64,000 nt of DNA from positions 82,881 to 146,880 of the forward strand of contig JAZPYO010000034.1 of assembly GCA_045544195.1 (NCBI GenBank). Direction: 5' to 3'. Shown here piece after piece: positions 1,815 to 55,899 of this stretch. Position 1 is the first letter of the stretch, and each line of letters starts with the position of its first letter. The notes beneath the pieces were generated by a model. The model saw only the letters and a list, made by a program, of their open reading frames with translations, was not told the DNA's origin and made no database searches. The position numbers were made by a program, and so were the translations under genes. Origin of the DNA: Eubacteriales bacterium (GTDB lineage Bacteria; Bacillota; Clostridia; Oscillospirales; CAG-272).

Positions 1815-1858
1815 GTGCCGACTGAAGCTGGTAGCTTGAGTCGGCACTTGCTTTTTTA
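1815..1858. terminator. Hairpin terminator between convergent genes
   Basis: The GTGCCGACT...AGTCGGCAC 9-bp stem is followed by TTGCTTTTTT. It lies between the LUD gene (+) and the kinase gene (-). Confidence 0.6.
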
Positions 1859-3559
1859 TCTGTAGAATGTATTTCCGCCTATAAATTCACGGACGAGACT
1901 TGTCGGTGGTATCTCGTCATCAACATCAACGGCGGCTTGTATTGAATTGAGTATCTTTACCATACCTCTTACCTGATCGTAGCATTCATCCTCAGGTGTT
2001 ATCTCAAGAAGCAACGGATAAATGTATTTTTTCAATATTACAAGCTCATACAGCGTAGAGCTGTTGAAAATAAAATCTGCATTTTCTTGGAATGGGAATA
2101 TCCATCTTTCTTCGCCTCGTCTTACCGATTCCCACATTGACAAGGTTCTTTGAACTGATGCGCCGCGAGTTTCATAATCTCTTACAGTACGTCTTAACAG
2201 TCTTAAATAGCTCGTCGCAATACGGTTGTGATTATCGAGATTAAGCGGTATAAGTGGGCTTATATACAGCTTAAATATCGCATTTTTGTCAAGCTCGGCG
2301 GGGAGAAGAAGGGGATTTAAAGCGTGAAGCCCTTCGATTATTATGACAGAATCGTCATTAAGTCTCAGTTTATGTCCTTTCCATTCACGCTTTGCAGTCT
2401 TGAAATTGAAAATCGGAATTTCAACCTCTTCACCCTTTAAAAGCTGTGATAAATGCTCAGCAAAAAGGGAAGTGTCAATCGTGTTTATGTGCTCAAGATC
2501 GAGCTTTCCGTCAGGTCCGGGTTTAATGAGGCATCTATCCAGATAATAATCGTCAAGACTCATAAGTATAGGCTTTTTTCCGTGAACCCGAAGCTGTGTT
2601 GCCAAGCGGTTCGCAGATGTCGTTTTCCCTGAGGAGCTCGGCCCTGCAAGCATTACCGCCTTTGCATCACGCTCACATATCATGTCTGCTATGTGTGAAA
2701 AGCTCTTTTCGTGCAAAGCCTCATTAACTCTGATCAGTTCGCGTATTCTGCCGTTTTCAACAAGCTGATTCAGGTCCGCAACTGTTTCGCACTCCATAAG
2801 CTCACCCCATTGCTTGCCTTCGGTGTATACGTTCAGAAAGTTCGGCATTTCGCGGTAAGAGGAAACTCGGTCAGGGTCAAATACGTCAGGGAATATGAAA
2901 ATAAATCCGTCAGGGGCAGAGATGATGTCCCATGATCTCAAAAAAGATGTTGACGGCATCATTTCGCCGTAATAATAATCGCAAAAATCATCATATTCAT
3001 ATACATCTATCGTTGGAGATGTGCGGTATTTTAGCAGGCTTACCTTATCAAAGTCGCCGCTTTTTGTATACCGTTGAATTGCTTCGGCTGTAGTTATCCT
3101 TTTTCGTAATAAAGGTATATCCTGATCTACAATGTGTTGAACCTGCTTTTTGAGCCTATCGGAAGAAAAGTCGTCGGTGTTGCAAACTTTTATATACAAT
3201 CCTGAACCAACGGTACAATTCATTTTCCCCTGCGCTGACGGCCAAAGCTGTTTTATTGCAAGGAAGAGAATAAACTGAGCTGTCCTTTTATAAGCCTCTC
3301 TGCCTGTGGGATCCTTGTATCTGAGCAAACGGATCTTGCCATCCGATGCCGCCATTGCGCGCCGTATCGAATCACGGTCATTTGAAACGTCCTTTTGACG
3401 CAAGGGAATATAATTCAATGTAAAAATTTCGCCTGCAAGCTTTGCGGCGATAGGATCTTGTGATAACTTTCCGCTAACCAAGCCGAGCCGCTTTGCAAGA
3501 TCAAGCAGTGTTTCATCGGGCTGCGGAGAAATGCGCAGCCCATCAATGATCAATTCCAT
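1856..3559 (-). CDS. Uridine/nucleoside kinase-family P-loop protein with a long N-terminal (TGS-like) extension
   Basis: 567 aa. It has a Walker A motif (LAGPSSSGKTT) followed by the LMSLDDYY motif typical of Udk-like kinases. The N-terminal ~290 aa is an additional domain. Confidence 0.6.
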   Translation of the reverse strand: MELIIDGLRISPQPDETLLDLAKRLGLVSGKLSQDPIAAKLAGEIFTLNYIPLRQKDVSNDRDSIRRAMAASDGKIRLLRYKDPTGREAYKRTAQFILFLAIKQLWPSAQGKMNCTVGSGLYIKVCNTDDFSSDRLKKQVQHIVDQDIPLLRKRITTAEAIQRYTKSGDFDKVSLLKYRTSPTIDVYEYDDFCDYYYGEMMPSTSFLRSWDIISAPDGFIFIFPDVFDPDRVSSYREMPNFLNVYTEGKQWGELMECETVADLNQLVENGRIRELIRVNEALHEKSFSHIADMICERDAKAVMLAGPSSSGKTTSANRLATQLRVHGKKPILMSLDDYYLDRCLIKPGPDGKLDLEHINTIDTSLFAEHLSQLLKGEEVEIPIFNFKTAKREWKGHKLRLNDDSVIIIEGLHALNPLLLPAELDKNAIFKLYISPLIPLNLDNHNRIATSYLRLLRRTVRDYETRGASVQRTLSMWESVRRGEERWIFPFQENADFIFNSSTLYELVILKKYIYPLLLEITPEDECYDQVRGMVKILNSIQAAVDVDDEIPPTSLVREFIGGNTFYR

Positions 3560-3804: not shown

Positions 3805-3833
3805 TTGACAAACCGTTAATTATATATTATAAT
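3805..3833 (+). promoter_or_regulatory. Consensus sigma-70/SigA promoter of the PqqD-giant-peptide-rSAM operon
   Basis: TTGACA (3805-3810), an exact 17-nt spacer, then TATAAT (3828-3833). Both hexamers are perfect consensus. Confidence 0.75.
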
Positions 3834-3865
3834 TAGTATGCATTATTATTTTTATAGGGAGAAGT

Positions 3866-4149
3866 GTATGATTTTAAAACAACGTGTTGTGATAAGAAAC
3901 ATAGCGGGTGAATTCATTGCCGTCCCTGTAAAAGCAGGTCAAAACAGCTTTGAGGGCGTCTTGACGACTAACGAGGTAGGGGCTTTCATTCTTGAACTTC
4001 TTAAGAATGAAATTTCATTTCCCGATCTTGTAAATGCCTTGGCATCCGAATTTGACGTTGATGCTGCAACGGCAGAAAATGATGCTTTGCATTTTGTCGA
4101 AAAGCTCCGCCAAAGCGGACTTATGGACAGCGAGGGAGGTACGTTATGA
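3866..4149 (+). CDS. PqqD-family peptide chaperone (stand-alone RiPP recognition element)
   Basis: Pattern ...IAGEFIAVPV...VLTTNEVGAFILELLKNEISFPDLVNALASEFDVDAATAENDALHFVEKLRQSGLM matches the PqqD fold signature (LNxxaxxiwxll, ...eydvd...a..Dv..fl..L...gl). I chose the ATG at 3866 because GGGAG lies 6-7 nt upstream. The track ATG at 3838 sits only 5 nt after the -10 box. Confidence 0.8.
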
Positions 4150-4209
4150 GTTAAGACCTGTTGTCACAAAGATCATGGTAAGAAAAAAATTATTTTAGGA
4201 GGCACAGAA

Positions 4210-7200
4210 TTGAAAAAAAGGATCTTATCTTTATTTCTTGTCAGCATAATGGTGTTCTCGGCTTTACCGTTGTCCGCGCTCGCCGAAATTGCTGATAACA
4301 GCGAAAAAAATGATTCTACAACGTCTCAGCTGGCAGAAACTACGAAGGATATTCTTGACGGTGCTATATATCTGCCTATAACTATCAGAGACTTCAACAA
4401 CGACGGTATCCTGTTCGAGTATAACAGCAGCGGTGTAATTTATGGTAGTAAAATGCGTATCCATGGCGATAATGCATCACAGTATGGACCTCTCACAGAT
4501 CCTTCAACTGAAAATCAGTTTGAAAAGGGTGATGCATACACAGCTTTTCCGACAACAGCAAACATATTAAGCCGTTATTACGGCGATTTTTACCGCGGCA
4601 CATCAAATAAAGCACCAAATCAAACAACTGTTGTTTATAATGCTGACGGCAGCGTGACACTCAAAAGTGATAGTGACGCAATTGACCCTCAGCTCCATAT
4701 TGATCTCAAGGGCAAAACAAAATCATATTCTTATCTTGCAATGGTGTATAAGAATGCGAAAAATATTGTGAATGACTCCAAGGTTGACTGGGAGGTATTT
4801 CCTTACGGCGTTGTTGATATGGCTGCCCGTAGAAAAAGTGGAGAGTATAATTCCGGCGATACCAAATTGGTAATTGGATCTGACGACTGGAACATCGTAT
4901 ATCTTCCGATCGACACAACGGAGGCTATGGACGGTATCCGTTTTGACTGGACGACCACACCTAATGCGGAAATCACGATAGCGGGCATTTATCTTGTCGA
5001 TTCAAAGCCTGCCAAGTCCGGATATGATGATGCAGCCGACCTTATGTATGCTGAAGGCACAACATTCAGCGGAAGCCTTCCTGCATCGAAAAACGTCACT
5101 TTTGCGTTTTTCCGTTACAGAAACGCAAATCCTTCAACATCGGTATCACTCAAAGTTAACGGAACGAATTTCGGTTCAACAAATTTAAAGAATGATTCCA
5201 TGTGGCATTGGGGCTATATGCACCCCGCTGCAGGTATCAACAACGGAACGTCATATACCTTGACGTCAACAGGCAATATCGAAATTTCAGAGCTGTATCT
5301 GCTCAACAATGATGATGCAGCGGCGTTGCAGGTATTGTTCAGAACATCGGGAAGCGGTCAGATCCCTGAAATGCATGCCCTTGAGGATTCCAACCTTGAT
5401 ATTCCTACAAGCGATGCTATCGTAGCAAAGCCCTATTACGATCCTACTATAGACTATGTTTTGTCCGAAACCGATAAAGCTGACGGTTATTACACACGCT
5501 ACTATGCGCAGAAGGATAATGCAACGCTCAATTTATATGATTACATTTCCAATGCAACGTACCGCATTAACTGCGGTAATGGAGCGATAGGACCGAAGTA
5601 TCCGCAATTTATGCAGATACGCTATAAGGCTTCCGGCTTTGGTAATAACAAAGGATTAGTTTTTAATTATAAAACAAACAGGGGTGCGGGCACTTTACAC
5701 CAGAGTGGAGCAAGCTCCGCGGTTACTGTGGATGATGACGGAAAATGGCACACGCTCGTTGTTCCGCTGAATAAAAGTCTCGACTGGTATCTTTGCGATA
5801 TTTCAACTGTTCTTCCCAAGGGCGCTACTTTGGATATTGACTATATAAACCTTTTCAATACAATCGCAGGCGCTGAGTATTATGTGAAGGACTGGGATAA
5901 ATTAAAGGCTAAGTATAACAACAATTTAGCTGCTATTTATGCAGACCACTGGGTACAGAGTGTTTTCTCGTTTAACACCAGCCCCAACGCGCACAAAACT
6001 GAGGGCGGTAACGGCCCTAACTCATCAGGCGGAGAATTCTTCTATAACTATCCCTTCAAGAGCGAGAGCGAGGCTGGAAAGATTCAGGCTTCGCTCAAGG
6101 ATTCGGAGACTGGTATTTATGATTCTACAAATCAAGTGTTCAAATTCCCGAACACAAATCGCACCTCTGTCGGCGGTACCCGCGGCACGTGGATAGAAGG
6201 TCTTGTCGATAATAAGCTCGGTCCGAACGGTAAGCCTGTTTATAAAAAGGAAATTGTTGAAGCGATCGCTAAAGCGCTTGCATTAGCTTTAACGATTCCT
6301 TACGAGTTGCCCGACGGAACACGTAACATCAGTGCTCTTGCAGGCGGTCTCGTTGATATCGACGTGCTTTTAGCAAATTGCAGTGATGATCAAAAGAATG
6401 CGATAATAAAAGATAAAATGAACGGTGATACGATGTTTGATATGGCAGAATATCTCCGTCACATGATCAAGCTGAACGGTAACTCACACGATACGTACTA
6501 TTATACAGTCGGCACATATGACGAAACAAAAGCTAAATCCGATCTCAGCTTTGCAAACGTTTCAACATGTATGGACGCAGCATACCTGTTGCTTAACGGT
6601 CTTTGGTCTTCAGCTGACGAAGGCGGTTACGCCATCGACCTGAACGATTATACAAATATCGGTCTTGTTTATGATGAGAAAAATGATTGCCACATATTCC
6701 GTTCATCTTATGCTGGCATCAATTATGACAAAGAAAACCGCCTCATTTACAACACCGTGATCGGTGATAAGGTAATTGAGCCCTGGATGGTTGCTACAAA
6801 AACAAATATGATCGCATCAACTTCTCCGGCTTCAGAATACCGCTTCCTTTCGGGCGCTATTGCACAAAGTGGCTACGGCGTAACTCATTCGCCGTATTAT
6901 TTCACAGACTGTAACTACGCAAATACCACAACTATGACTCGTTACGATTCTGCATCTAAAACAAATTTACTTGACCAGGATCTTAACGTAACAAAAACCG
7001 AAAGCGAAGCACAGTTTAACGGTCTGTTTTACGGCAATGACAACTATAACTTTACAGTTCAGGGACACGGTGTGTTTGTTTTTGACTCGACGAAGGATCT
7101 TTTCTTTGAGTTTAACGGCGATGACGACGTTTACCTTTATCTGAACAATGAACTTGTTCTTGATCTTGGCGGTGCTCACGGCAGAACAGATAAGAGAGTT

Positions 7201-10200
7201 AAAGTTACAGAGTTACTCAACACAAAGGGCATTGAAGACGGCGAGGTAGTTTCGTTCGACTTCTTCCAGGCTGAGCGTCACGGATATGGCTCTAACTTCG
7301 CTATTTTAACCAATATTCCGATCGTTACCCCTGATATTGAAGTTGATAAGACTGCTGAACAGGAAAATGAAACTCCCGATACGAAGGATGATGCGCTTGA
7401 ATACAATGCAACGGTAAATCCCGACGCGCCGATTTCTTACGCATTCAGTCTTGAGAATATCGCAGAAAATAAGGAATATCTTCACAATTTCACGTTTACA
7501 GACAACAAGGCAAGCGTTGAGCTTTCCAAGGATTTAATTAAGCTGAACGATCATACAACAATTAATGATATTACCGTGACGGTAGTATATTATGAATATG
7601 ACGAGGCTGACACCAAAAAAGAGAACTTAGAAACAAGAAAGAAAATAGAAATAACCTACGGCAAGGATACTCCGGGCTGGTCAGAGGATATGTTAAAGCA
7701 GATCCTTTCAGGTGATATTCTGCTTGAGTACGATTCGATAGATCCTGATCATCCCTATCGCGGAAAAGGTCTTTACTTTGGTGATTCGATCAAAATATCC
7801 GGTATCAATTACGTATTTACCGAAGATGATAAAAAGGAAGGCTCATTCCAGAATACTGTTGTTGTAACTACAGAAACAGTCGATTTGACGGGAATAGCTG
7901 AAACATTGGTTAAGCAGGATGATTTTGTCGTTATCCTTCCGAATGATAAGATATACCTTTGGGCTGACCATGCAAGAACGTTCAACGTATCAGAATTCTT
8001 TATTGATGAGTCAATCGGTAGAATACCGTATGAGAATATCGGAAAGACTATCGAAGATATTTCCTATGCTGCTGCTGTAACAGGTGTCTCTGAAGTAACT
8101 GACGGTCTTGCAGCTACATTTACTACCGGTGACGACATAAGAACGCAGTCATTCACCGTAAGTTCCACAAAAGTAGGTTCACTTACCTTTAAGTACAATG
8201 TTAAGCTTACTATCACAGATACAAAAGCGGAAGAAGGCACCGAGCCTACTGTGGAAAATATGACATATACCGTTGTAGTATATACTTACGATGCCAACGA
8301 TATATCATTCGCTCTCGACTACGGTCTGCCGATGGTGGTTAACACCGATGACTATCTCAAGGGTGATACAGTTAACCTCCGCACAAACACCGCTGCTTCT
8401 TCTAAAGTTACAGGCTATGCAACTTCACAGGATGTTTCATCTCCTAAGAGTGAGGCATACGGTACTATAAGCGAGCTGGGTGCTGACAGTTCTATAACCT
8501 ATACCCCCATTAAGTTTATCGAAGGCAGAGATTACGTTTATGTTAAGATAGGCGTATCTGAGGAATTTGGTTCAAATACTCCCTATGCGGTTACAAAGGG
8601 TGTTGAAATGTGGAAGAAGGTTTCCTTCGTTCCCGCATCCGTTGTTTACTACGAAGAAAAAATAGGTGTGAATTACAAATCTCCCGCGCAGACATTTGAG
8701 CTTGACAATGTTAACAGAACGCAGTCCGCTGACGGAGAGCTCCAGTACGGTTATGACAATGCGTACAATGATAACAACGCAACGCAGTCAGGCAATTCCG
8801 ACGCAGTTCCTCCGCAGTACTACATTATCTGGTACAAGGAAATAATTCAGGCAGGAACAGGAACAGGCGGCTTTGACAACCAGGGTAACACATATAACTT
8901 CAGTAACAATTCCTACGCTTATATCAATACTAAATCCGATGCTTATCAGTCATTCTGGAATAATAAGACAAATAACCAGCTCAATGCTGCTATCGAATTT
9001 ACATTCAATGGCACAGGATTTGAGATCATAAGCTATACGAATTTGAATACTGCAACCGTAGTTGTTGACGTATTCGATGCTGACGGTAATAAGGTAGATA
9101 CAAAGTACGTATTTACAAAGTACACCAACGGTCAGCTTCAGCAAGTTCCGATAATCGACTTTGAGGGTCTTACGTACGGTCGGTACAGCGTAAAGGTTTA
9201 CGCAGTTCCCGCTGTTGCGTCTACTGCAACAGACTTCTACCTTGACGGTATCAGAATCTTCGATCCTCTCGGAAAAGGCGATGACGGCGATTCTGCTCTG
9301 AGAGAAGAAACGTATCTTGAGAAGGAAAACAACGCTGATATCTTCGATATACGCGAACTCCTTCTTGCGTCCAACAAGGTTGCACTTGCCGGCACAAAGA
9401 TCGACGCTAACAAGACTGCATATTCTTTCATAGGCAACGGTACAACTCTTGTTGAAAGAAAGGGTAAGGGCCCCGGTATGATCGGCGAGGGTTATCTCAA
9501 TGAATCTATAGCTGACGCAGATGCATTATTCAACTACGCAACCGTTGGTCCTAACAACGAAATATACCTCAGTGCAGGTAATACAGTTGCAGTTCTTCTC
9601 ACCGCAAATGATGCTTCTTCCGCGAAGACATTCCAGGTTGAAGCTAAGCGTCTTGGCGAAACGAACTCATTACTTGCATACGTGGTTGTAGATGAAGAAG
9701 GCAACTACAGCTACAGACTTGCTGAGGTCAAGAGTTACACAGCAATGTATTTCGAAATTGACATTTCTGATTGTCCTAAGGACGAAAAAGGCAATTACGT
9801 TGTTATAATCGGTACAGCTCTCAATGATGCAGAACTCGATGCATTTAACGGTACGATAAGCCTTACATCATTCAAGGTTAAGGGCTACACAATGTCAGCA
9901 CCTGATATTTCCGTAAAAGCCACAACTGCAAACGCTGCATCTATGTCCGAGTTTGCAGAGATAGTTATGGAAGGTACAGAGGTAATTTCAGGTCATACAG
10001 CTAAGTATAACCCCGATCTGTATATCACGTCTGTAACATCTTCAGTATCTGCTACTGTTGGCGGCAAGGTTAAGTTTAACGTAGTCGCTTCGGCAGAAAC
10101 AACTGAAATAATAGTAAGAGACGGCAACGGTGAAATAGTTAACAGTGCAGTTCTTTCAGTAAGAACTATCGGTAATAACAAGATATTCACAGTTGAAATG

Positions 10201-10305
10201 GATGCACCTGCAAATGTAGGCACCTACAATTATGCAGTAGTTGCAGAGGATTCCGAAGGCAGACTGTCCGAAGAAGCACATTTCACTGCAACAGCAATTA
10301 ACTAA
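4210..10305 (+). CDS. Giant secreted protein (2031 aa) with a Sec signal peptide and a fibro-slime/PA14-like domain
   Basis: TTG start with AGGAGG 7 nt upstream. N-terminal signal MKKRILSLFLVSIMVFSALPLSALA. Fibro-slime hallmarks are ITIRDFNNDGILFEY near the N-terminus and FEFNGDDDVYLYLNNELVLDLGGAHG...FDFFQAERHGYGSNF near aa 960-1030. The C-terminal third is beta-rich and Ig-like. No LPXTG, dockerin or choline-binding anchor was seen. Confidence 0.75.
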   Translation: MKKRILSLFLVSIMVFSALPLSALAEIADNSEKNDSTTSQLAETTKDILDGAIYLPITIRDFNNDGILFEYNSSGVIYGSKMRIHGDNASQYGPLTDPSTENQFEKGDAYTAFPTTANILSRYYGDFYRGTSNKAPNQTTVVYNADGSVTLKSDSDAIDPQLHIDLKGKTKSYSYLAMVYKNAKNIVNDSKVDWEVFPYGVVDMAARRKSGEYNSGDTKLVIGSDDWNIVYLPIDTTEAMDGIRFDWTTTPNAEITIAGIYLVDSKPAKSGYDDAADLMYAEGTTFSGSLPASKNVTFAFFRYRNANPSTSVSLKVNGTNFGSTNLKNDSMWHWGYMHPAAGINNGTSYTLTSTGNIEISELYLLNNDDAAALQVLFRTSGSGQIPEMHALEDSNLDIPTSDAIVAKPYYDPTIDYVLSETDKADGYYTRYYAQKDNATLNLYDYISNATYRINCGNGAIGPKYPQFMQIRYKASGFGNNKGLVFNYKTNRGAGTLHQSGASSAVTVDDDGKWHTLVVPLNKSLDWYLCDISTVLPKGATLDIDYINLFNTIAGAEYYVKDWDKLKAKYNNNLAAIYADHWVQSVFSFNTSPNAHKTEGGNGPNSSGGEFFYNYPFKSESEAGKIQASLKDSETGIYDSTNQVFKFPNTNRTSVGGTRGTWIEGLVDNKLGPNGKPVYKKEIVEAIAKALALALTIPYELPDGTRNISALAGGLVDIDVLLANCSDDQKNAIIKDKMNGDTMFDMAEYLRHMIKLNGNSHDTYYYTVGTYDETKAKSDLSFANVSTCMDAAYLLLNGLWSSADEGGYAIDLNDYTNIGLVYDEKNDCHIFRSSYAGINYDKENRLIYNTVIGDKVIEPWMVATKTNMIASTSPASEYRFLSGAIAQSGYGVTHSPYYFTDCNYANTTTMTRYDSASKTNLLDQDLNVTKTESEAQFNGLFYGNDNYNFTVQGHGVFVFDSTKDLFFEFNGDDDVYLYLNNELVLDLGGAHGRTDKRVKVTELLNTKGIEDGEVVSFDFFQAERHGYGSNFAILTNIPIVTPDIEVDKTAEQENETPDTKDDALEYNATVNPDAPISYAFSLENIAENKEYLHNFTFTDNKASVELSKDLIKLNDHTTINDITVTVVYYEYDEADTKKENLETRKKIEITYGKDTPGWSEDMLKQILSGDILLEYDSIDPDHPYRGKGLYFGDSIKISGINYVFTEDDKKEGSFQNTVVVTTETVDLTGIAETLVKQDDFVVILPNDKIYLWADHARTFNVSEFFIDESIGRIPYENIGKTIEDISYAAAVTGVSEVTDGLAATFTTGDDIRTQSFTVSSTKVGSLTFKYNVKLTITDTKAEEGTEPTVENMTYTVVVYTYDANDISFALDYGLPMVVNTDDYLKGDTVNLRTNTAASSKVTGYATSQDVSSPKSEAYGTISELGADSSITYTPIKFIEGRDYVYVKIGVSEEFGSNTPYAVTKGVEMWKKVSFVPASVVYYEEKIGVNYKSPAQTFELDNVNRTQSADGELQYGYDNAYNDNNATQSGNSDAVPPQYYIIWYKEIIQAGTGTGGFDNQGNTYNFSNNSYAYINTKSDAYQSFWNNKTNNQLNAAIEFTFNGTGFEIISYTNLNTATVVVDVFDADGNKVDTKYVFTKYTNGQLQQVPIIDFEGLTYGRYSVKVYAVPAVASTATDFYLDGIRIFDPLGKGDDGDSALREETYLEKENNADIFDIRELLLASNKVALAGTKIDANKTAYSFIGNGTTLVERKGKGPGMIGEGYLNESIADADALFNYATVGPNNEIYLSAGNTVAVLLTANDASSAKTFQVEAKRLGETNSLLAYVVVDEEGNYSYRLAEVKSYTAMYFEIDISDCPKDEKGNYVVIIGTALNDAELDAFNGTISLTSFKVKGYTMSAPDISVKATTANAASMSEFAEIVMEGTEVISGHTAKYNPDLYITSVTSSVSATVGGKVKFNVVASAETTEIIVRDGNGEIVNSAVLSVRTIGNNKIFTVEMDAPANVGTYNYAVVAEDSEGRLSEEAHFTATAIN

Positions 10306-10319
10306 GGAGGTAAATAAAA

Positions 10320-10544
10320 ATGAATAACACCAAAAGATCATACACTACTCCTTATTTAAATGTGGAAAAGTTTGAGCTCAGCAGGTCGATATCTTCAACA
10401 TGTGATGCCGATCCTGTTGTGCAGGACTTCAAAACAGCAGGATATTTCGGTTCTGTTGATGGTTGCGAATATCCTATGTCTGAATATCAAGGTGTAGAAA
10501 AGCCGTGCTACCACACTGTAAACGCTGTTTTCACATCTGTTTGA
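10320..10544 (+). CDS. Small acidic Cys/aromatic-rich protein (74 aa), candidate radical-SAM-modified precursor peptide
   Basis: AGGAGG lies 8 nt upstream and overlaps the stop of the giant gene. Its stop is 4 nt before the rSAM ATG. It has 3 Cys (STCDAD, DGCEYP, KPCYHT) and 10 Tyr/Phe. No signal peptide or double-glycine motif was seen. Confidence 0.6.
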   Translation: MNNTKRSYTTPYLNVEKFELSRSISSTCDADPVVQDFKTAGYFGSVDGCEYPMSEYQGVEKPCYHTVNAVFTSV

Positions 10545-10548
10545 TATA

Positions 10549-11625
10549 ATGTTTATTAAAAAACAAATATTGTCTAAAGCGGCAAAGCTCAAAAACCCCG
10601 TTAGCGGGGTTTTTGAGTTAACGCCAAGATGTAATTTTAATTGCCGTATGTGCTATATCAAAATGCAAGAGGATGAAGTGAAGGCACTCGGCGGTGAGCT
10701 GACCATTAATGACTGGATGGCTATATGCGATGACGCTTACGAAAACGGTATGCTTTATCTTTTGCTTACAGGCGGTGAAGTGTTTCTCCTTGAGGATTTT
10801 CCCGTTCTGTACCGCCACGCATATGAAAAGGGAATTATCCTTTCGATAAATTCCAACGGTTCGCTTATTACAGATTCACACCTGCAAATGCTTAAGGAAA
10901 TGCCGCCCGAGAAGATAAATATAACTCTCTACGGCGATAGTCCCGAAATGTACGGTAAGCTCTGTAATAATCCAAATGCATATAAGACGGTCACAGAAAA
11001 CATTTTGAAGCTCAAGGATAATGGAATAAGAGTTTCTCTCAATTGCTCGCTCACACGCCTTAACGCAGGATCTCTTGACAATCTAATTGATTTTGCACTC
11101 AAAAATGAGTTACCTATCAACATTGCAACGTATATGTTCCCTCCGATGCGTAATGGTTGCTCGGAATACGAAAGCATCCGTTTATCTGCTGAGGAATGCG
11201 GTAAAATACGTGCATATCTCGATTACCGAGATGAATCATCGAGAGATAAAAAGAAGCAGTTGATCGCTGACGGAGCTAAGATAGACAGATTGAATGTAGA
11301 ATGCCCCGAAAGCGGCACAAAGTGTATGGCGGGGCGATGCAGCTTCTGGATGACCTGGCAAGGAAAAATGTCAGCTTGCGGTATGTTTGCTGATACGGTT
11401 GATTATAAGATCGGAAATTTTGACCGTGCCTGGTCGCAAATCGTTGAAAAAACTAATCTTATCACATATCCCGATGAGTGCAATGAATGTAAATACGGCA
11501 CATTATGCACTTGTTGTGCGGCAATTAACTTTGCGGAAGGTGGGGCTTTTAATGCCGTTCCGAAATTCTTCTGTGATATGACAGATGCATACATCAAGGA
11601 ATTTGAACGTCTTAGCAGTATGTAA
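10549..11625 (+). CDS. Radical SAM enzyme with a C-terminal SPASM/twitch-like auxiliary Fe-S domain (putative peptide maturase)
   Basis: CNFNCRMCY gives the CX3CX2C motif at aa 28-35, and LLTGGEVFL is a SAM-binding GGE motif. C-terminal Cys clusters are CPESGTKCMAGRC...QGKMSAC (Gx4C) and CNECKYGTLCTCC (CX2CX5CX1-2C). No N-terminal RRE and no obvious SD. Confidence 0.8.
   Translation: MFIKKQILSKAAKLKNPVSGVFELTPRCNFNCRMCYIKMQEDEVKALGGELTINDWMAICDDAYENGMLYLLLTGGEVFLLEDFPVLYRHAYEKGIILSINSNGSLITDSHLQMLKEMPPEKINITLYGDSPEMYGKLCNNPNAYKTVTENILKLKDNGIRVSLNCSLTRLNAGSLDNLIDFALKNELPINIATYMFPPMRNGCSEYESIRLSAEECGKIRAYLDYRDESSRDKKKQLIADGAKIDRLNVECPESGTKCMAGRCSFWMTWQGKMSACGMFADTVDYKIGNFDRAWSQIVEKTNLITYPDECNECKYGTLCTCCAAINFAEGGAFNAVPKFFCDMTDAYIKEFERLSSM
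10588..10617 (+). terminator. Terminator-like hairpin (putative attenuator) inside the first ~23 codons of the rSAM ORF
   Basis: CTCAAAAACCCCG-TTAG-CGGGGTTTTTGAG is a perfect 13-bp stem with a GC core followed by a T5 run. It begins about 45 nt after the peptide stop codon. Confidence 0.5.
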
Positions 11626-11640
11626 TTATTTATATAAAAA

Positions 11641-11673
11641 AACTCTTTTGCGTTATTGCAAAAGAGTTTTTTT
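11641..11673 (+). terminator. Rho-independent terminator of the rSAM operon
   Basis: AACTCTTTTGC-GTTATT-GCAAAAGAGTT (11-bp stem) is followed by a T run. It starts 16 nt after the rSAM stop. Confidence 0.8.
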
Positions 11674-11684
11674 ATGCGAAAGGG

Positions 11685-11731
11685 CGACTAAAAGTAGTAT
11701 AAGTAGGGGTAAAAACGACCAAAAGTAGTAT
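11685..11731. repeat. Two 16-nt direct repeats CGAC(T/C)AAAAGTAGTAT, 31 nt apart start-to-start
   Basis: Copies at 11685-11700 and 11716-11731 differ at 1 position. A third AAGTAG core lies in the spacer. Confidence 0.5.
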
Positions 11732-11802
11732 TATCGATATTTGGCGCAACATAAAGTTAGACTATTAATAAATTCAGGTAAGTATGTTTGATCGATTAGG
11801 CA

Positions 11803-11862
11803 CTTCACGATGCGTAGCATCCCTTCACGCACGCAGTGCGCTTCTCGTGCCGCAAGGCACAC
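11803..11862. repeat. Three tandem ~20-nt units, each CTTC(A/T)C followed by a 5-bp hairpin
   Basis: The units are CTTCAC-GATGC-GTA-GCATC, CTTCAC(GCAC)-GCA-GTGCG and CTTCTC-GTGCC-GCAA-GGCAC. A fourth CTT(AGC) follows and leads into the 21-bp terminator stem. Confidence 0.4.
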
Positions 11863-11868
11863 TTAGCT

Positions 11869-11913
11869 GAAAAGAAACACCATTTGTCTGGTAGACAAAT
11901 GGTGTTTCTTTTC
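11869..11913 (-). terminator. Long perfect hairpin directly downstream of tRNA-Arg (potentially bidirectional)
   Basis: GAAAAGAAACACCATTTGTCT-GGT-AGACAAATGGTGTTTCTTTTC is a 21-bp perfect stem with A/T-rich flanks on both sides. It abuts the tRNA 3' end. Confidence 0.7.
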
Positions 11914-13768: not shown

Positions 13769-14650
13769 TTATTCGGCGGGCGTTTCGTTGTCTGCTTCTG
13801 CGGTTGTTTCATTAGAAACAGTCTTTTCCTGCAAGTCGAAAGCGATCTCGTCGCCGTTACTGAGAACTATTTCAGTCGCAGAAGTTGTTACAGTCACATC
13901 GTTTATGATGATCACCCATTGTTTATCTTCGCCGGCTTCAACATCACCGATCTTAACGATCGATGCTTTATCCTCGGAGAAAGTAACCGCCATACCGGAT
14001 ATTGCGGAACCTTGCTGTGTATCGATCTCTGTCTTTCCGTCCTTCTTTGCTGACGAGTTGAACTCGGAGATATTAAAGAGATTGTAAAGTGTAAGATCGT
14101 TCTTATCACCCATTATTGAAATGGACTGGTCGCTGATCAGCTTTTGTGCACCGTTAGTGGCGTTGAATGTAACGCTGATGGAACGATAAGTATTCTCTTC
14201 GAGCTTGAATTCAACAAGATCGTAGTTATTCAACGTGCAATTCTTGGAGTCCTCGACCTTGACGCCGTTTACATATACATACCAAAGGTACTCGACGCCT
14301 TGATCTGTGGTGCCTGCAACTTCATTTGTTATAGATTCAACAGTAACGTTGTTGCCTATATCTGTCGTAATAACACAGTCCTTCTTTCTTTCTGTGCAGA
14401 GTGTATTCAAAGCAAGGTAGGGAGTAGCCTTTTTGCCCCACTCATATTCGTGGTTCTCGTTAGGAATAACGCGTATCGCGTCAAGATATACGATACGTTT
14501 ACCGGCCTTATTGTAAACATAAGCCGATACGTATGTTGTGTTTGCAGTTTCGTCATCTGTATTTGAGCAGGATGCTAAAGCAACTGCTGAGAAAACGAGC
14601 AGTGCAGCAAATGCAAACGATAAGATTCTCTTTAATTTCATATTAAACAT
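13769..14650 (-). CDS. Lipoprotein with two DUF4430-like modules
   Basis: Signal peptide plus lipobox (AVALASC). The repeated pattern LWYVYVNGVKV...YDLVEFKL and QWVIIINDVTV...NGDEIAFDL resembles DUF4430. Confidence 0.5.
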   Translation of the reverse strand: MFNMKLKRILSFAFAALLVFSAVALASCSNTDDETANTTYVSAYVYNKAGKRIVYLDAIRVIPNENHEYEWGKKATPYLALNTLCTERKKDCVITTDIGNNVTVESITNEVAGTTDQGVEYLWYVYVNGVKVEDSKNCTLNNYDLVEFKLEENTYRSISVTFNATNGAQKLISDQSISIMGDKNDLTLYNLFNISEFNSSAKKDGKTEIDTQQGSAISGMAVTFSEDKASIVKIGDVEAGEDKQWVIIINDVTVTTSATEIVLSNGDEIAFDLQEKTVSNETTAEADNETPAE

Positions 14651-14758
14651 TTAACCTCCTTAATGTGAATACACATCATATTTAATTATACTACAAATAT
14701 TCAGAGTTGTCAAGTAAACAGTGTAATATTTATAATAATTATATTGTAATAGCAAGGC

Positions 14759-54525: not shown

Positions 54526-55757
54526 TTTATACCCATATCATTGTTGATAAGACTTGCGGGCCTGATTGCATTTTTTCCGAATTTGTCTGTAATTTTATCT
54601 ACTGCACTGTCGAGCCGTTGATCCCTTTCGTCATCGGCAATCTCGTCAAAAAAGGAAAGCTGGTCCTGATATTCGGTTTCATAAACAAGATTAAGTGCGG
54701 TTACTGTCATTGCCCTTATCGGCTTTTTCAGACTCCAGCATTTTTCAAATATATCAAGCGCGCACGTGTATATCTTTTTTGTTGAATTAGTTGCCATATC
54801 GAGCGGCGAGCGGCGTTGAAGCGTTTTGAAATTTACGTCCTTAATGGAAAGCTGAACTGTTTTGCATTTAATGCCCTGGTGTCTCATTCTTGCGCAAACA
54901 TCACTTGCAAGGGCGGAAATACCGGCCTGTACAGATTGAATATCACCGATGTCATGCGAAAATGTTATACCTCTGCCAACGGATTTTACTTTGTGAGAGG
55001 AATAGTAGCAGGCGACAGGCTCGTCATCTGCGCCGATGGCATATTTATACAGAATGTCTCCGGCTGCTCCAAGCCGTTTTCGCAGTATATCAGCAGGCAT
55101 CTCCGCAAGCTGACCGATAGTTGAAATGTGCATCTGATTCAGCTTTTCACCAACAGATCTTCCGACGAACAAAAGCGCACTTACATCCAACGGATACACT
55201 ATCTGCTTGAAATTATCCTGTGTTATTACGGTAGTCGCATCGGGCTTTTTGTAATCTGAGCCCAATTTTGCAAACGCCTTATTGAACGATACACCGACCG
55301 ACGCGGTAAGTCCTGTTTCCCTTTTTATCGTGTCACGGATCTCGTCGGCAATTCTTTTTGCCGTACTGAAATTAACTTCACCGTACAAATGCAGAGTTCC
55401 TGTTATATCAAGCCATGACTCATCTATACCGAACGGTTCGACAAGATCGGTATAACGCAGGTATATTGTATTTACGTACTTGCTGTACTTTTCATATTTA
55501 TCGTAATGAGGCGGAACGATAACAAGCTCGGGACATTTTTTTCGTGCCGATGCAAGTGTTTCCGCAGTCTGAATACCGTATTTTTTTGCAAGCTCGTTTT
55601 TAGCCAGAATTATGCCGTGGCGGCTTTTTTCATTTCCGCCGACAGCCATAGGTACGTTTTTTAAGTGCGGAGCGAGCGCACATTCAACTGAAGCAAAAAA
55701 ACCGTTCAGATCACAATGCAAAATATATCTGTTTTTCATAGTAATATTATAACTCAA
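54522..55757 (-). CDS. dinB: Y-family DNA polymerase IV
   Basis: ILHCDLNGFFASVE, SIDESWLD-type catalytic motif (GIDESWLDIT) and a little-finger domain. 411 aa. Confidence 0.88.
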   Translation of the reverse strand: MSYNITMKNRYILHCDLNGFFASVECALAPHLKNVPMAVGGNEKSRHGIILAKNELAKKYGIQTAETLASARKKCPELVIVPPHYDKYEKYSKYVNTIYLRYTDLVEPFGIDESWLDITGTLHLYGEVNFSTAKRIADEIRDTIKRETGLTASVGVSFNKAFAKLGSDYKKPDATTVITQDNFKQIVYPLDVSALLFVGRSVGEKLNQMHISTIGQLAEMPADILRKRLGAAGDILYKYAIGADDEPVACYYSSHKVKSVGRGITFSHDIGDIQSVQAGISALASDVCARMRHQGIKCKTVQLSIKDVNFKTLQRRSPLDMATNSTKKIYTCALDIFEKCWSLKKPIRAMTVTALNLVYETEYQDQLSFFDEIADDERDQRLDSAVDKITDKFGKNAIRPASLINNDMGIK

Positions 55758-55899
55758 TTTATTTACCGTGTCAATACCGTGTTAATGCTATATAAGCACA
55801 TTTAATTATTAATAAAATAATAAATATTTACATAAATTTAATTGTTGCGTGTTCAAAATATGTTATGATAATTCTATCTATGATAAGGAGTATCAACAG

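Follow-up and report, generated by a model that had tools for sequence, protein, structure and literature searches.

We examined a 64,000-nucleotide (nt) stretch of the genome of a Eubacteriales bacterium (NCBI GenBank assembly GCA_045544195.1, contig JAZPYO010000034.1, positions 82,881 to 146,880 of the forward strand; hereafter the window), in which four genes on the same strand encode a PqqD-family protein, a giant exoprotein, a small cysteine-containing peptide and a radical S-adenosylmethionine (rSAM) enzyme with a SPASM-type cysteine motif (Table 1). A sequence-only reading of this DNA had described the four as one unit, similar to the pathways that make peptides ribosomally synthesized and then post-translationally modified (RiPPs), and set between a perfect promoter and a strong terminator, and both signals lie where it had placed them. 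Perfect TTGACA-17-TATAAT sites number three in the window against 0.02 expected from shuffled sequences, and the cassette of a close relative (locus L001, 64% identical) likewise carries a perfect promoter ahead of its PqqD gene and a comparable hairpin 3’ of its rSAM gene. The other two perfect promoters are at 14685-14713 and 55746-55774, both on the minus strand, the former directly upstream of a DUF4430 gene (13769-14650, minus strand). Gaps of 60, 14 and 4 nt separate the consecutive genes of the unit. With moderate confidence, which applies to the explanation developed below as a whole, we read the region as a single transcription unit that encodes a maturation system of the RiPP type with a functional tie to the giant exoprotein.

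Table 1. Features of the four-gene unit, in window coordinates (aa, amino acids; RBS, ribosome-binding site; dG, folding free energy; z, z-score).
Feature	Position	Strand	Details
Sigma-70 promoter, TTGACA-17-TATAAT	3805..3833	+	12/12 positions match
Stand-alone PqqD-family RiPP recognition element protein, 93 aa	3868..4149	+	PF05402, E=1.3e-14, 54.7 bits (cutoff 23.4)
Giant secreted protein, 2031 aa	4210..10305	+	TTG start; AGGAGG RBS; N-terminal Sec-type signal peptide
Fibro-slime/PA14 domain of the giant, aa 944-1036	7039..7317	+	TIGR02148, 71.9 bits (cutoff 45); PF07691, 27.7 bits (cutoff 24); matches at aa ~941-1036
Conserved C-terminal module of the giant, aa ~1350-1900	8257..9909	+	alignments A3, A7
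Putative precursor peptide, 74 aa	10320..10544	+	AAGGAGG RBS; start 14 nt past the stop codon of the giant
rSAM enzyme with SPASM-type C-terminal Cys motif, 358 aa	10549..11625	+	PF04055, 76 bits (cutoff 29.5), aa 23-181
Hairpin with U-run inside the 5’ end of the rSAM reading frame	10586..10619	+	dG -23.8 kcal/mol, z -6.7
Intrinsic terminator, operon end	11633..11676	+	hairpin dG -22.7 kcal/mol, z -8.1

The leading gene encodes a stand-alone RiPP recognition element (RRE) of the PqqD family, as the sequence-only reading had held, and thereby places an RRE protein in the same operon as the candidate modifying enzyme; its Pfam score is above the family cutoff, and the NCBIfam equivalog models were not reached (TIGR03859, PqqD, 26 against 46 bits). 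Its start had to be corrected. The reading frame is open from 3838, but translation almost certainly begins at the ATG at 3868, because a GGGAG ribosome-binding site precedes this codon and the L001 homologue aligns there, whereas the ATG at 3838 is only 4 nt past the -10 box.

The last gene, which starts 4 nt past the peptide stop codon and lacks its own ribosome-binding site, encodes a member of the radical SAM superfamily with the CX3CX2C motif at C28/C32/C35, invariant in 34 homologues. A motif at residue 28 leaves no room for an N-terminal RRE; the enzyme thus lacks a fused RRE, in keeping with a need for PqqD as a separate protein. The SPASM motif, which holds two auxiliary Fe-S clusters, has the canonical form CX9-15GX4C ... 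CX2CX5CX3C ... C. The enzyme possesses seven C-terminal cysteines that are invariant in its homologues (C259-X12-G272-X4-C277, C311-X2-C314-X5-C320-X2-C323 and C342), with X2 in place of the canonical X3 as the last spacing. The earlier description of the protein as a radical SAM/SPASM enzyme is therefore borne out for the radical SAM core and the seven-cysteine pattern but not by the Pfam SPASM model, which aligns over its full length to aa 259-323 and scores 11.2 bits, below the cutoff of 21.5 (PF13186). Among the best 25 NCBIfam families no equivalog was approached, the closest being GeoRSP_rSAM at 78.7 bits against a cutoff of 400. The best sequence matches in the PDB cover only the radical SAM core (top match SkfB, E=2e-8), and the 494 relatives found in the sequence database are annotated at most as ‘radical SAM protein’.

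A hairpin had also been noted after the small reading frame. Such a structure exists, but it lies inside the rSAM coding region and not between the genes: it falls within the first 70 nt of the reading frame, over the codons for K-N-P-V-S-G-V-F-E. Its nucleotides are almost invariant in L001 and in the closer relative L002, although the synonymous sites around it have diverged, and in L005 a hairpin occurs at the same codons but is formed by different complementary bases. It may serve as an attenuator or partial terminator 3’ of the peptide gene, or as an mRNA-stabilising 3’ end. Together with the absent ribosome-binding site, it would probably keep the enzyme well below the levels of the giant and the peptide.

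The giant has a fibro-slime/PA14 domain as one domain among many in its family; in the window protein, Pfam and NCBIfam detected no others, a sequence search of the PDB gave no relative, and the chain contains just 7 scattered cysteines. More than 50 giants from other loci align to it only at aa ~1350-1900, the conserved C-terminal module, which carries the motifs PAxxVYYED, FxFxGTGF, LYQVP, YLDGIRIYxP and GPNNE. Elsewhere these proteins differ: the family giants are heterogeneous (1000-2500 aa), with variable N-termini and with PA14/fibro-slime, VWA, Listeria-Bacteroides repeat (Flg_new), pullulanase X25 and DUF7601 domains. Nothing in Pfam matched the module above threshold, and the weak matches were to Ig-like beta-sandwich models only; in alignments A3 and A7 the module shows neither an invariant cysteine nor a Ser-type target motif. 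The first alignment, A3, was too divergent for the locus scan and A7 was used instead. A word-indexed protein search retrieved only 8 module homologues, and an AlphaFold2 (AF2) model from a 9-sequence alignment had a mean predicted local distance difference test score (pLDDT) of 48.8, too low for a fold search.

Within the peptide, alignments A2 and A5 show residues Y8, P11, C28, C49, C63, Y64 and S73 (window numbering) to be invariant and F71 nearly so. The N-terminus follows the pattern M-K-K-x-Y-x-K-P-x-L-x-V-E-x-F-x-L-x-x-x-I-A and the C-terminus the pattern C-Y-H/N ... F-x-S, and the middle is variable in length and sequence; in the window peptide, which ends F-T-S-V, Ser73 is the penultimate residue. 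A profile built only from the peptides of other clades matches the 74-aa reading frame with E=2.5e-12 (the peptide profile search of the 64-kb window gave E=7.7e-10), and between the window and L002 the ratio of nonsynonymous to synonymous substitution rates (dN/dS) is 0.10 for the peptide gene and 0.11 for the rSAM gene. Because of this low ratio and the match to distant relatives, the small reading frame is, on comparative sequence grounds, a real conserved gene under strong purifying selection. A HMMER search of 1.84 billion cluster representatives returned 1603 matches at E<=1e-3 (321 of them at E<=1e-10), among which are a few spurious repeat proteins; large multi-match proteins considered as fusions of giant and peptide were rejected as belonging to this spurious class. 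The 259 peptide-sized members have Ser as the last residue in 245 cases and Ser followed by exactly one residue in 14, and 232 of them contain four cysteines, compared with three in the window type. Neither Pfam nor NCBIfam has a model for the family, whose database members are named at most ‘hypothetical protein’. The AF2 model of the peptide (54 sequences) is mostly disordered, with a pLDDT of 56.7, and gave no crosslink geometry; such disorder is expected of a precursor before its modification and speaks against an autonomous folded domain, while the odd and invariant number of cysteines (three) argues against a fold held by disulfides alone.

These four genes are not peculiar to the window. 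An alignment-based scan of species-representative genomes found at least 549 genome stretches with relatives of the rSAM enzyme, in Oscillospiraceae, Lachnospiraceae, Faecousia, Dorea, Mediterraneibacter and other gut Clostridia, whereas a genome scan with the single rSAM sequence as query gave no matches. Calling and clustering of open reading frames in 83 loci (numbered from L001) revealed a recurrent cassette made up of a giant of 1000-2500 aa, a peptide of 70-100 aa, a ScmC-like P-loop protein of ~290 aa related to ScmC and HPr kinase, the rSAM enzyme and PqqD, often accompanied by c3, a membrane-anchored protein of ~270-320 aa. The ScmC-like neighbour in L003 has a precomputed Pfam match to ScmC (PF27840); in searches of the PDB a single ScmC-like sequence found no match and the ScmC profile reached HPr kinase, weakly. 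The domain of c3 proved unrelated to the giant module; the module, the peptide and c3 are three unannotated families without a model. Further frequent neighbours include ABC exporters without a peptidase domain (18 loci) and PF14907 (NTP_transf_5) nucleotidyltransferases (6 loci). The window belongs to this unnamed cassette family by its score of 457.8 bits with the family rSAM profile, its match to the peptide profile and its possession of the shared module; the literature that was searched contained no description of the cassette.

The association of peptide and giant holds from both directions. Among the 46 well-sampled rSAM-anchored loci, defined by at least 8 kb of upstream and at least 1.5 kb of downstream sequence, 41 contain the giant module, 40 the peptide, 40 the ScmC-like gene, 33 PqqD and 26 c3; a peptide homologue and a module-bearing giant are hence present in 87-89% of the loci with enough context. 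In the reverse scan, which used the giant module alone and found 425 relatives, the 35 module-anchored loci of at least 18 kb have within 10 kb a peptide gene in 30 cases (86%), an rSAM gene in 27 (77%), and PqqD and ScmC in 27 each. Gene order varies, with PqqD ahead of the giant or after rSAM and the giant before or after the enzyme genes, yet strand and contiguity of the cassette are retained, and the distance from the stop codon of the giant to the start of the peptide is mostly -4 to +21 nt across the family. The prediction that the small gene would prove to be conserved beside rSAM homologues is thus confirmed, and its constant company with the enzyme, together with its conserved leader-like N-terminus (Y8, P11), is what is expected of a RiPP precursor. 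The broader claim of a RiPP-like unit (PqqD, small cysteine-containing peptide, rSAM/SPASM enzyme) co-produced with a secreted giant is likewise supported, as the association recurs in hundreds of Clostridia species. Two features that had been called unusual have a narrower validity. Separation of PqqD from its enzyme characterizes the window clade and one neighbouring clade but not the family, in which a same-strand PqqD homologue occurs in 56 of 82 related loci and is found, in most relatives, directly 3’ of rSAM or one gene further on. The window cassette does lack an exporter, but the absence of accessory genes is not general either, since most relatives add the ScmC-like gene and c3, and an ABC exporter or an NTP_transf_5 nucleotidyltransferase is present in many.

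The explanation that we consider probable, if by no means certain, has four steps. PqqD would bind the 74-aa peptide at its conserved leader-like N-terminus (consensus K-x-Y-x-K/T-P-x-L-x-V-E-x-F) and present it to the RRE-less radical SAM/SPASM enzyme; the latter would crosslink the peptide intramolecularly in the cytoplasm, with thioethers from the three invariant cysteines as the likeliest bonds; and the mature peptide would then cooperate with the beta-sandwich module conserved at the C-terminus of the Sec-secreted giant, serving at the cell surface as docking partner, cap or anchor. In the fuller cassettes, by analogy with phosphorylated lasso peptides, the HPr-kinase-like protein would probably phosphorylate the terminal Ser, the PF14907 enzyme may decorate the phosphate, and the ABC exporters would carry the peptide out. 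The narrower proposal that the peptide is a dedicated structural partner of adhesin-like giants, docked on or attached to the module, serving as anchor, cap or assembly factor on the cell surface, and phosphorylated at its terminal Ser in the fuller cassettes, we put forward tentatively, as possible rather than probable.

In favour of this explanation, the pairwise distances of module and rSAM (r=0.64), peptide and module (0.55) and peptide and rSAM (0.41) are correlated across 51 loci (Mantel p=0.001 each), but the test was run without a housekeeping control, so that the correlations indicate co-inheritance and not necessarily co-adaptation, shared species history being a possible cause. Several observations weigh against the explanation. 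About a quarter of the well-sampled rSAM loci have no PqqD. Two loci, L003 and L005, have the rSAM gene, the ScmC-like gene and a glycoside hydrolase family 20 (GH20) protein, with no detectable peptide or module. The window cassette contains neither an exporter nor a leader peptidase, yet a cytoplasmic peptide would have to meet a secreted giant. The rSAM protein scores at ~72-79 bits with the GeoRSP, NirJ2, AhbC/D, MoaA and MftC models alike and is, by these scores, roughly as far from peptide-modifying as from non-peptide SPASM/twitch enzymes. That the peptide is modified and that PqqD binds its leader are predictions from the genes, and the low-confidence model of the module cannot point to a putative binding site.

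The cassette was compared with known systems that resemble it in part. The pyrroloquinoline quinone (PQQ) pathway (PqqD/PqqE/PqqA) shares the stand-alone PqqD RRE, an RRE-less rSAM/SPASM enzyme and a small precursor gene in the operon; the aromatic-x-K-P-x-hydrophobic...E pattern of the window leader presumably resembles the N-terminus of PqqA. The window cassette is nevertheless no PQQ operon: the rSAM protein reaches 60.2 of the 381 bits set for PqqE (TIGR02109), the PqqD score falls short as given above, pqqB, pqqC and pqqF are missing, the giant forms part of the unit, and the peptide, at 74 aa, has three invariant cysteines and no Glu/Tyr pair. Mycofactocin can be set aside on similar grounds (MftC, TIGR03962, 72.4 bits against 265), and the MftA peptide ends in Val-Tyr, which the window peptide does not. 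For the relation between peptide and giant, the closest functional analogy is the gamma subunit of quinohemoprotein amine dehydrogenase: the rSAM/SPASM enzyme QhpD crosslinks the cysteines of QhpC, a small protein of ~80-110 aa, through thioethers in the cytoplasm, and QhpC then joins, as a subunit, a larger protein that is exported and whose gene lies in that operon too. The likeness is by analogy and not by model; QhpD is not among the best 25 NCBIfam families, the window has no QhpE-type peptidase or QhpF exporter, the partner is an adhesin-like giant and not a redox enzyme, and the carriers of the cassette are Gram-positive gut anaerobes.

Maturases of sactipeptides and ranthipeptides (AlbA, SkfB, PapB and CteB/SCIFF) are also rSAM/SPASM enzymes that act on cysteine-containing peptides through RRE-mediated recognition, and these peptide classes are defined by thioethers from a Cys sulfur to a C-alpha, C-beta or C-gamma atom. 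Their models score only 44-48 bits with the window enzyme (AlbA 48 against a cutoff of 850, SkfB 44.5 against 300, PapB 46.6 against 340; SCIFF/CteB is not among the best 25), and the window differs from them in its separate RRE, its much longer precursor, the lack of an exporter or peptidase and the coupling to a giant. SynChlorMet (SCM) and GeoRSP, two uncharacterised rSAM/PqqD cassettes defined by Haft, share the rSAM/SPASM enzyme, a PqqD-like protein and the HPr-kinase-like ScmC. Here too the scores are far below the cutoffs (ScmC 17-27 bits against 125 in the relatives, ScmD 17.9 against 100, ScmE 59.3 against 400, with GeoRSP as above), no ScmC-like gene is present in the 64-kb window, and those systems occur in other taxa, with another peptide family and no giant. 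The anaerobic sulfatase-maturating enzymes (anSMEs), which are encoded beside a sulfatase with a C/S-x-P-x-R motif, can be excluded as a family, with no anSME model among the best 25 NCBIfam matches of the rSAM protein and no sulfatase domain in the cassette according to Pfam and NCBIfam. Lastly, in the lasso peptides paeninodin and pseudomycoidin the C-terminal Ser is phosphorylated and then glycosylated (PMC6993621). The fuller cassettes resemble these pathways in their HPr-kinase-like P-loop protein, in the PF14907 enzyme and ABC exporter that some possess, and in peptides that end in Ser, but they have an rSAM enzyme instead of a lasso cyclase or leader peptidase; the window cassette itself has no kinase, and one residue follows the Ser of its peptide.

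Other explanations of the same genes have to be considered. The peptide could be a free-standing RiPP, a bacteriocin or a signal, made by PqqD and the rSAM enzyme with the giant as no more than a frequent neighbour. Its enzymes are those of a typical RiPP pathway, the middle part of the peptide is variable both in sequence and in length, and the ABC exporter, HPr-kinase-like protein and NTP_transf_5 enzyme of the fuller cassettes make up the accessory set of paeninodin and pseudomycoidin (PMC6993621). However, the link between peptide and module is kept in both directions and through rearrangements of gene order, the spacing of the giant and peptide genes is nearly constant, and the giants differ everywhere but in that one common module; moreover, selection on the peptide is purifying and not diversifying, and neither an immunity gene nor a leader peptidase is conserved. 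We regard this account as unlikely.

Lower in our estimation comes the idea that the rSAM enzyme modifies the giant before export, in the manner of anSME, with the small protein and PqqD as helpers. SPASM enzymes that act on whole proteins, such as anSME, are well established; the enzyme co-diverges with the module (r=0.64); and in L003 and L005 a secreted GH20 protein accompanies rSAM and ScmC although no peptide can be detected. The conserved module, on the other hand, offers no invariant cysteine or Ser-type motif as a target, which makes the giant the less likely substrate, and the few cysteines of the window giant are scattered. A PqqD-type RRE and a leader-like peptide N-terminus point to the peptide instead, whose own cysteines are invariant.

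Lower again, and in our judgement improbable, is a cofactor precursor following the logic of PQQ or mycofactocin, excised from the C-Y...F-x-S end for use by the giants or the GH20 enzymes. The invariance of C63 and Y64, the near-invariance of F71, a Ser that is last or second-to-last in 259 of 259 peptides, strong purifying selection and the PQQ-like arrangement of a stand-alone PqqD with an RRE-less SPASM enzyme would all suit such a precursor. Yet the cassette has no conserved peptidase or other tailoring enzyme, the PqqE, PqqD and MftC models are all far under their cutoffs, and the giants are adhesin-like (PA14, VWA and Ig-like repeats) with no recognisable redox or catalytic domain. Finally, the small gene could encode the immunity or chaperone partner of a polymorphic giant toxin, or could be unexpressed, with rSAM and PqqD as unrelated neighbours in either case. 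A small reading frame after a giant secreted protein is typical of pairs of toxin and immunity protein, but we reject this highly improbable case because the conservation is opposite to what it predicts: the C-terminus of the giant is conserved and its N-terminus variable, the small protein has conserved termini and is clearly under selection, and it co-occurs with rSAM and PqqD in most loci. A partnership of peptide and module accounts better than any rival for the link that holds between them in both directions.

The surroundings of the cassette in other genomes provide additional hints. Wzz/CpsD-type tyrosine kinases (often in two copies), a CpsB phosphatase and a 272-aa Ig-like surface protein adjoin many full cassettes, and such capsule or exopolysaccharide regulators occur in L010, L023, L028, L030, L049, L051, L058, L060, L064, L069, L070, L079, L083 and others, a hint of some connection with the cell envelope or matrix. 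A secreted GH20 hexosaminidase of ~800-1080 aa with FIVAR, MucBP or dockerin domains is encoded in the clades closest to the window; it lies between ScmC and rSAM in L014, L024, L029, L033, L044, L046 and L067, and is the GH20 protein of L003 and L005. Beside the cassettes of L035, L038, L049, L066 and L079 there is a tyrosine recombinase of the Phage_integrase family, which suggests that some copies reside on mobile elements; the window has no such gene. Two rSAM genes lie within 20 kb of each other in L019, L039, L049, L205 and L221, with two peptide and two ScmC-like genes as well in all of these but L221, and the paired genes indicate that the cassette was duplicated locally.

On a neighbour-joining tree the window falls together with L002 (77% identity) and L001, whose cassettes are reduced in the same way, to PqqD, giant, peptide and rSAM (the L002 sequence is cut upstream). 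The sister clade is formed by L003 and L005, and the next clade out has PqqD, giant, peptide, ScmC, GH20 protein and rSAM. No ScmC-like or c3 gene was found within the 64-kb window, and this absence, together with the extra residue at the end of its peptide, marks the window cassette, which also lacks an exporter and a leader peptidase, as a minimal derivative of the family. All peptides of the window clade have one residue after the Ser (SV, SA or SY); the same is seen in 11 peptides of other clades (P0268, P0282, P0288, P0300, P0303, P0311, P0326, P0341, P0359, P0374 and P0387). That loss of ScmC might explain the extra residue is only partly supported by these sequences: the window clade fits, but in L016, L020, L032 and L062 no ScmC was detected within the locus and the peptides nevertheless end in Ser.

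The cassette is accessory. The closest relative of the window flanks is the metagenome-assembled genome (MAG) that holds L001, with the gene order penicillin-binding protein, DUF4430, diacylglycerol kinase, PP-loop, tRNA-Arg(ccg), uridine-kinase-like, LUD and tyrS; there, tRNA-Arg is next to the kinase-like gene and no cassette intervenes, and the L001 cassette is on a different contig, flanked by genes for a HAD hydrolase and a sigma factor. In L002 the cassette occupies the same site as in the window, its rSAM stop codon 55 nt from the same tRNA. Since the site is empty in one relative and filled in the other, the tRNA is part of the backbone and the cassette was inserted or relocated; the accessory status proposed from the neighbouring tRNA-Arg thus stands, but the tRNA belongs to the conserved backbone and not to the insert. 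No sign of integrase-type insertion was found: no repeat of at least 9 nt, direct or inverted, is common to the cassette borders, and the window cassette has no integrase and no GC anomaly. Between the terminator and tRNA-Arg the window has a non-coding stretch of ~240 bp (11677-11913), which holds a GC-rich imperfect palindrome (~11800-11870) and is missing from L002. On the other side, a purine riboswitch aptamer (RF00167, 3592-3689, minus strand; 53.3 bits against a gathering score of 37) precedes a 567-aa uridine-kinase-family gene (1856-3559, minus strand) that is divergent from the cassette, and this leader is conserved in L084.

Peptide systems built on radical SAM enzymes and RREs are usually taken to produce antibiotics, signals or cofactors. 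The enzymology of the cassette, a discrete PqqD RRE with an rSAM/SPASM enzyme, is of a known type, and what is new is its coupling to a giant: across hundreds of species of gut Clostridia the cassette ties this enzymology to giants with adhesin domains (PA14/fibro-slime, VWA and Ig-like repeats). The peptide, the giant module and c3 are families that curators could model, and the window cassette, as the minimal four-gene version, is the simplest construct for reconstitution; cultured carriers of the cassette include Clostridium celatum DSM 1785 (locus L178) and Dorea acetigenes (loci L025 and L165), both with full cassettes, as well as Fusibacillus kribbianus and Bariatricus sp. If the peptide does act as partner of the module, it would represent a new way to build or anchor surface proteins in dominant gut anaerobes and a new role for RiPP chemistry, in which a RiPP would serve as a protein subunit and the logic of QhpC would extend beyond redox enzymology, widespread among the Oscillospiraceae and Lachnospiraceae of the gut.

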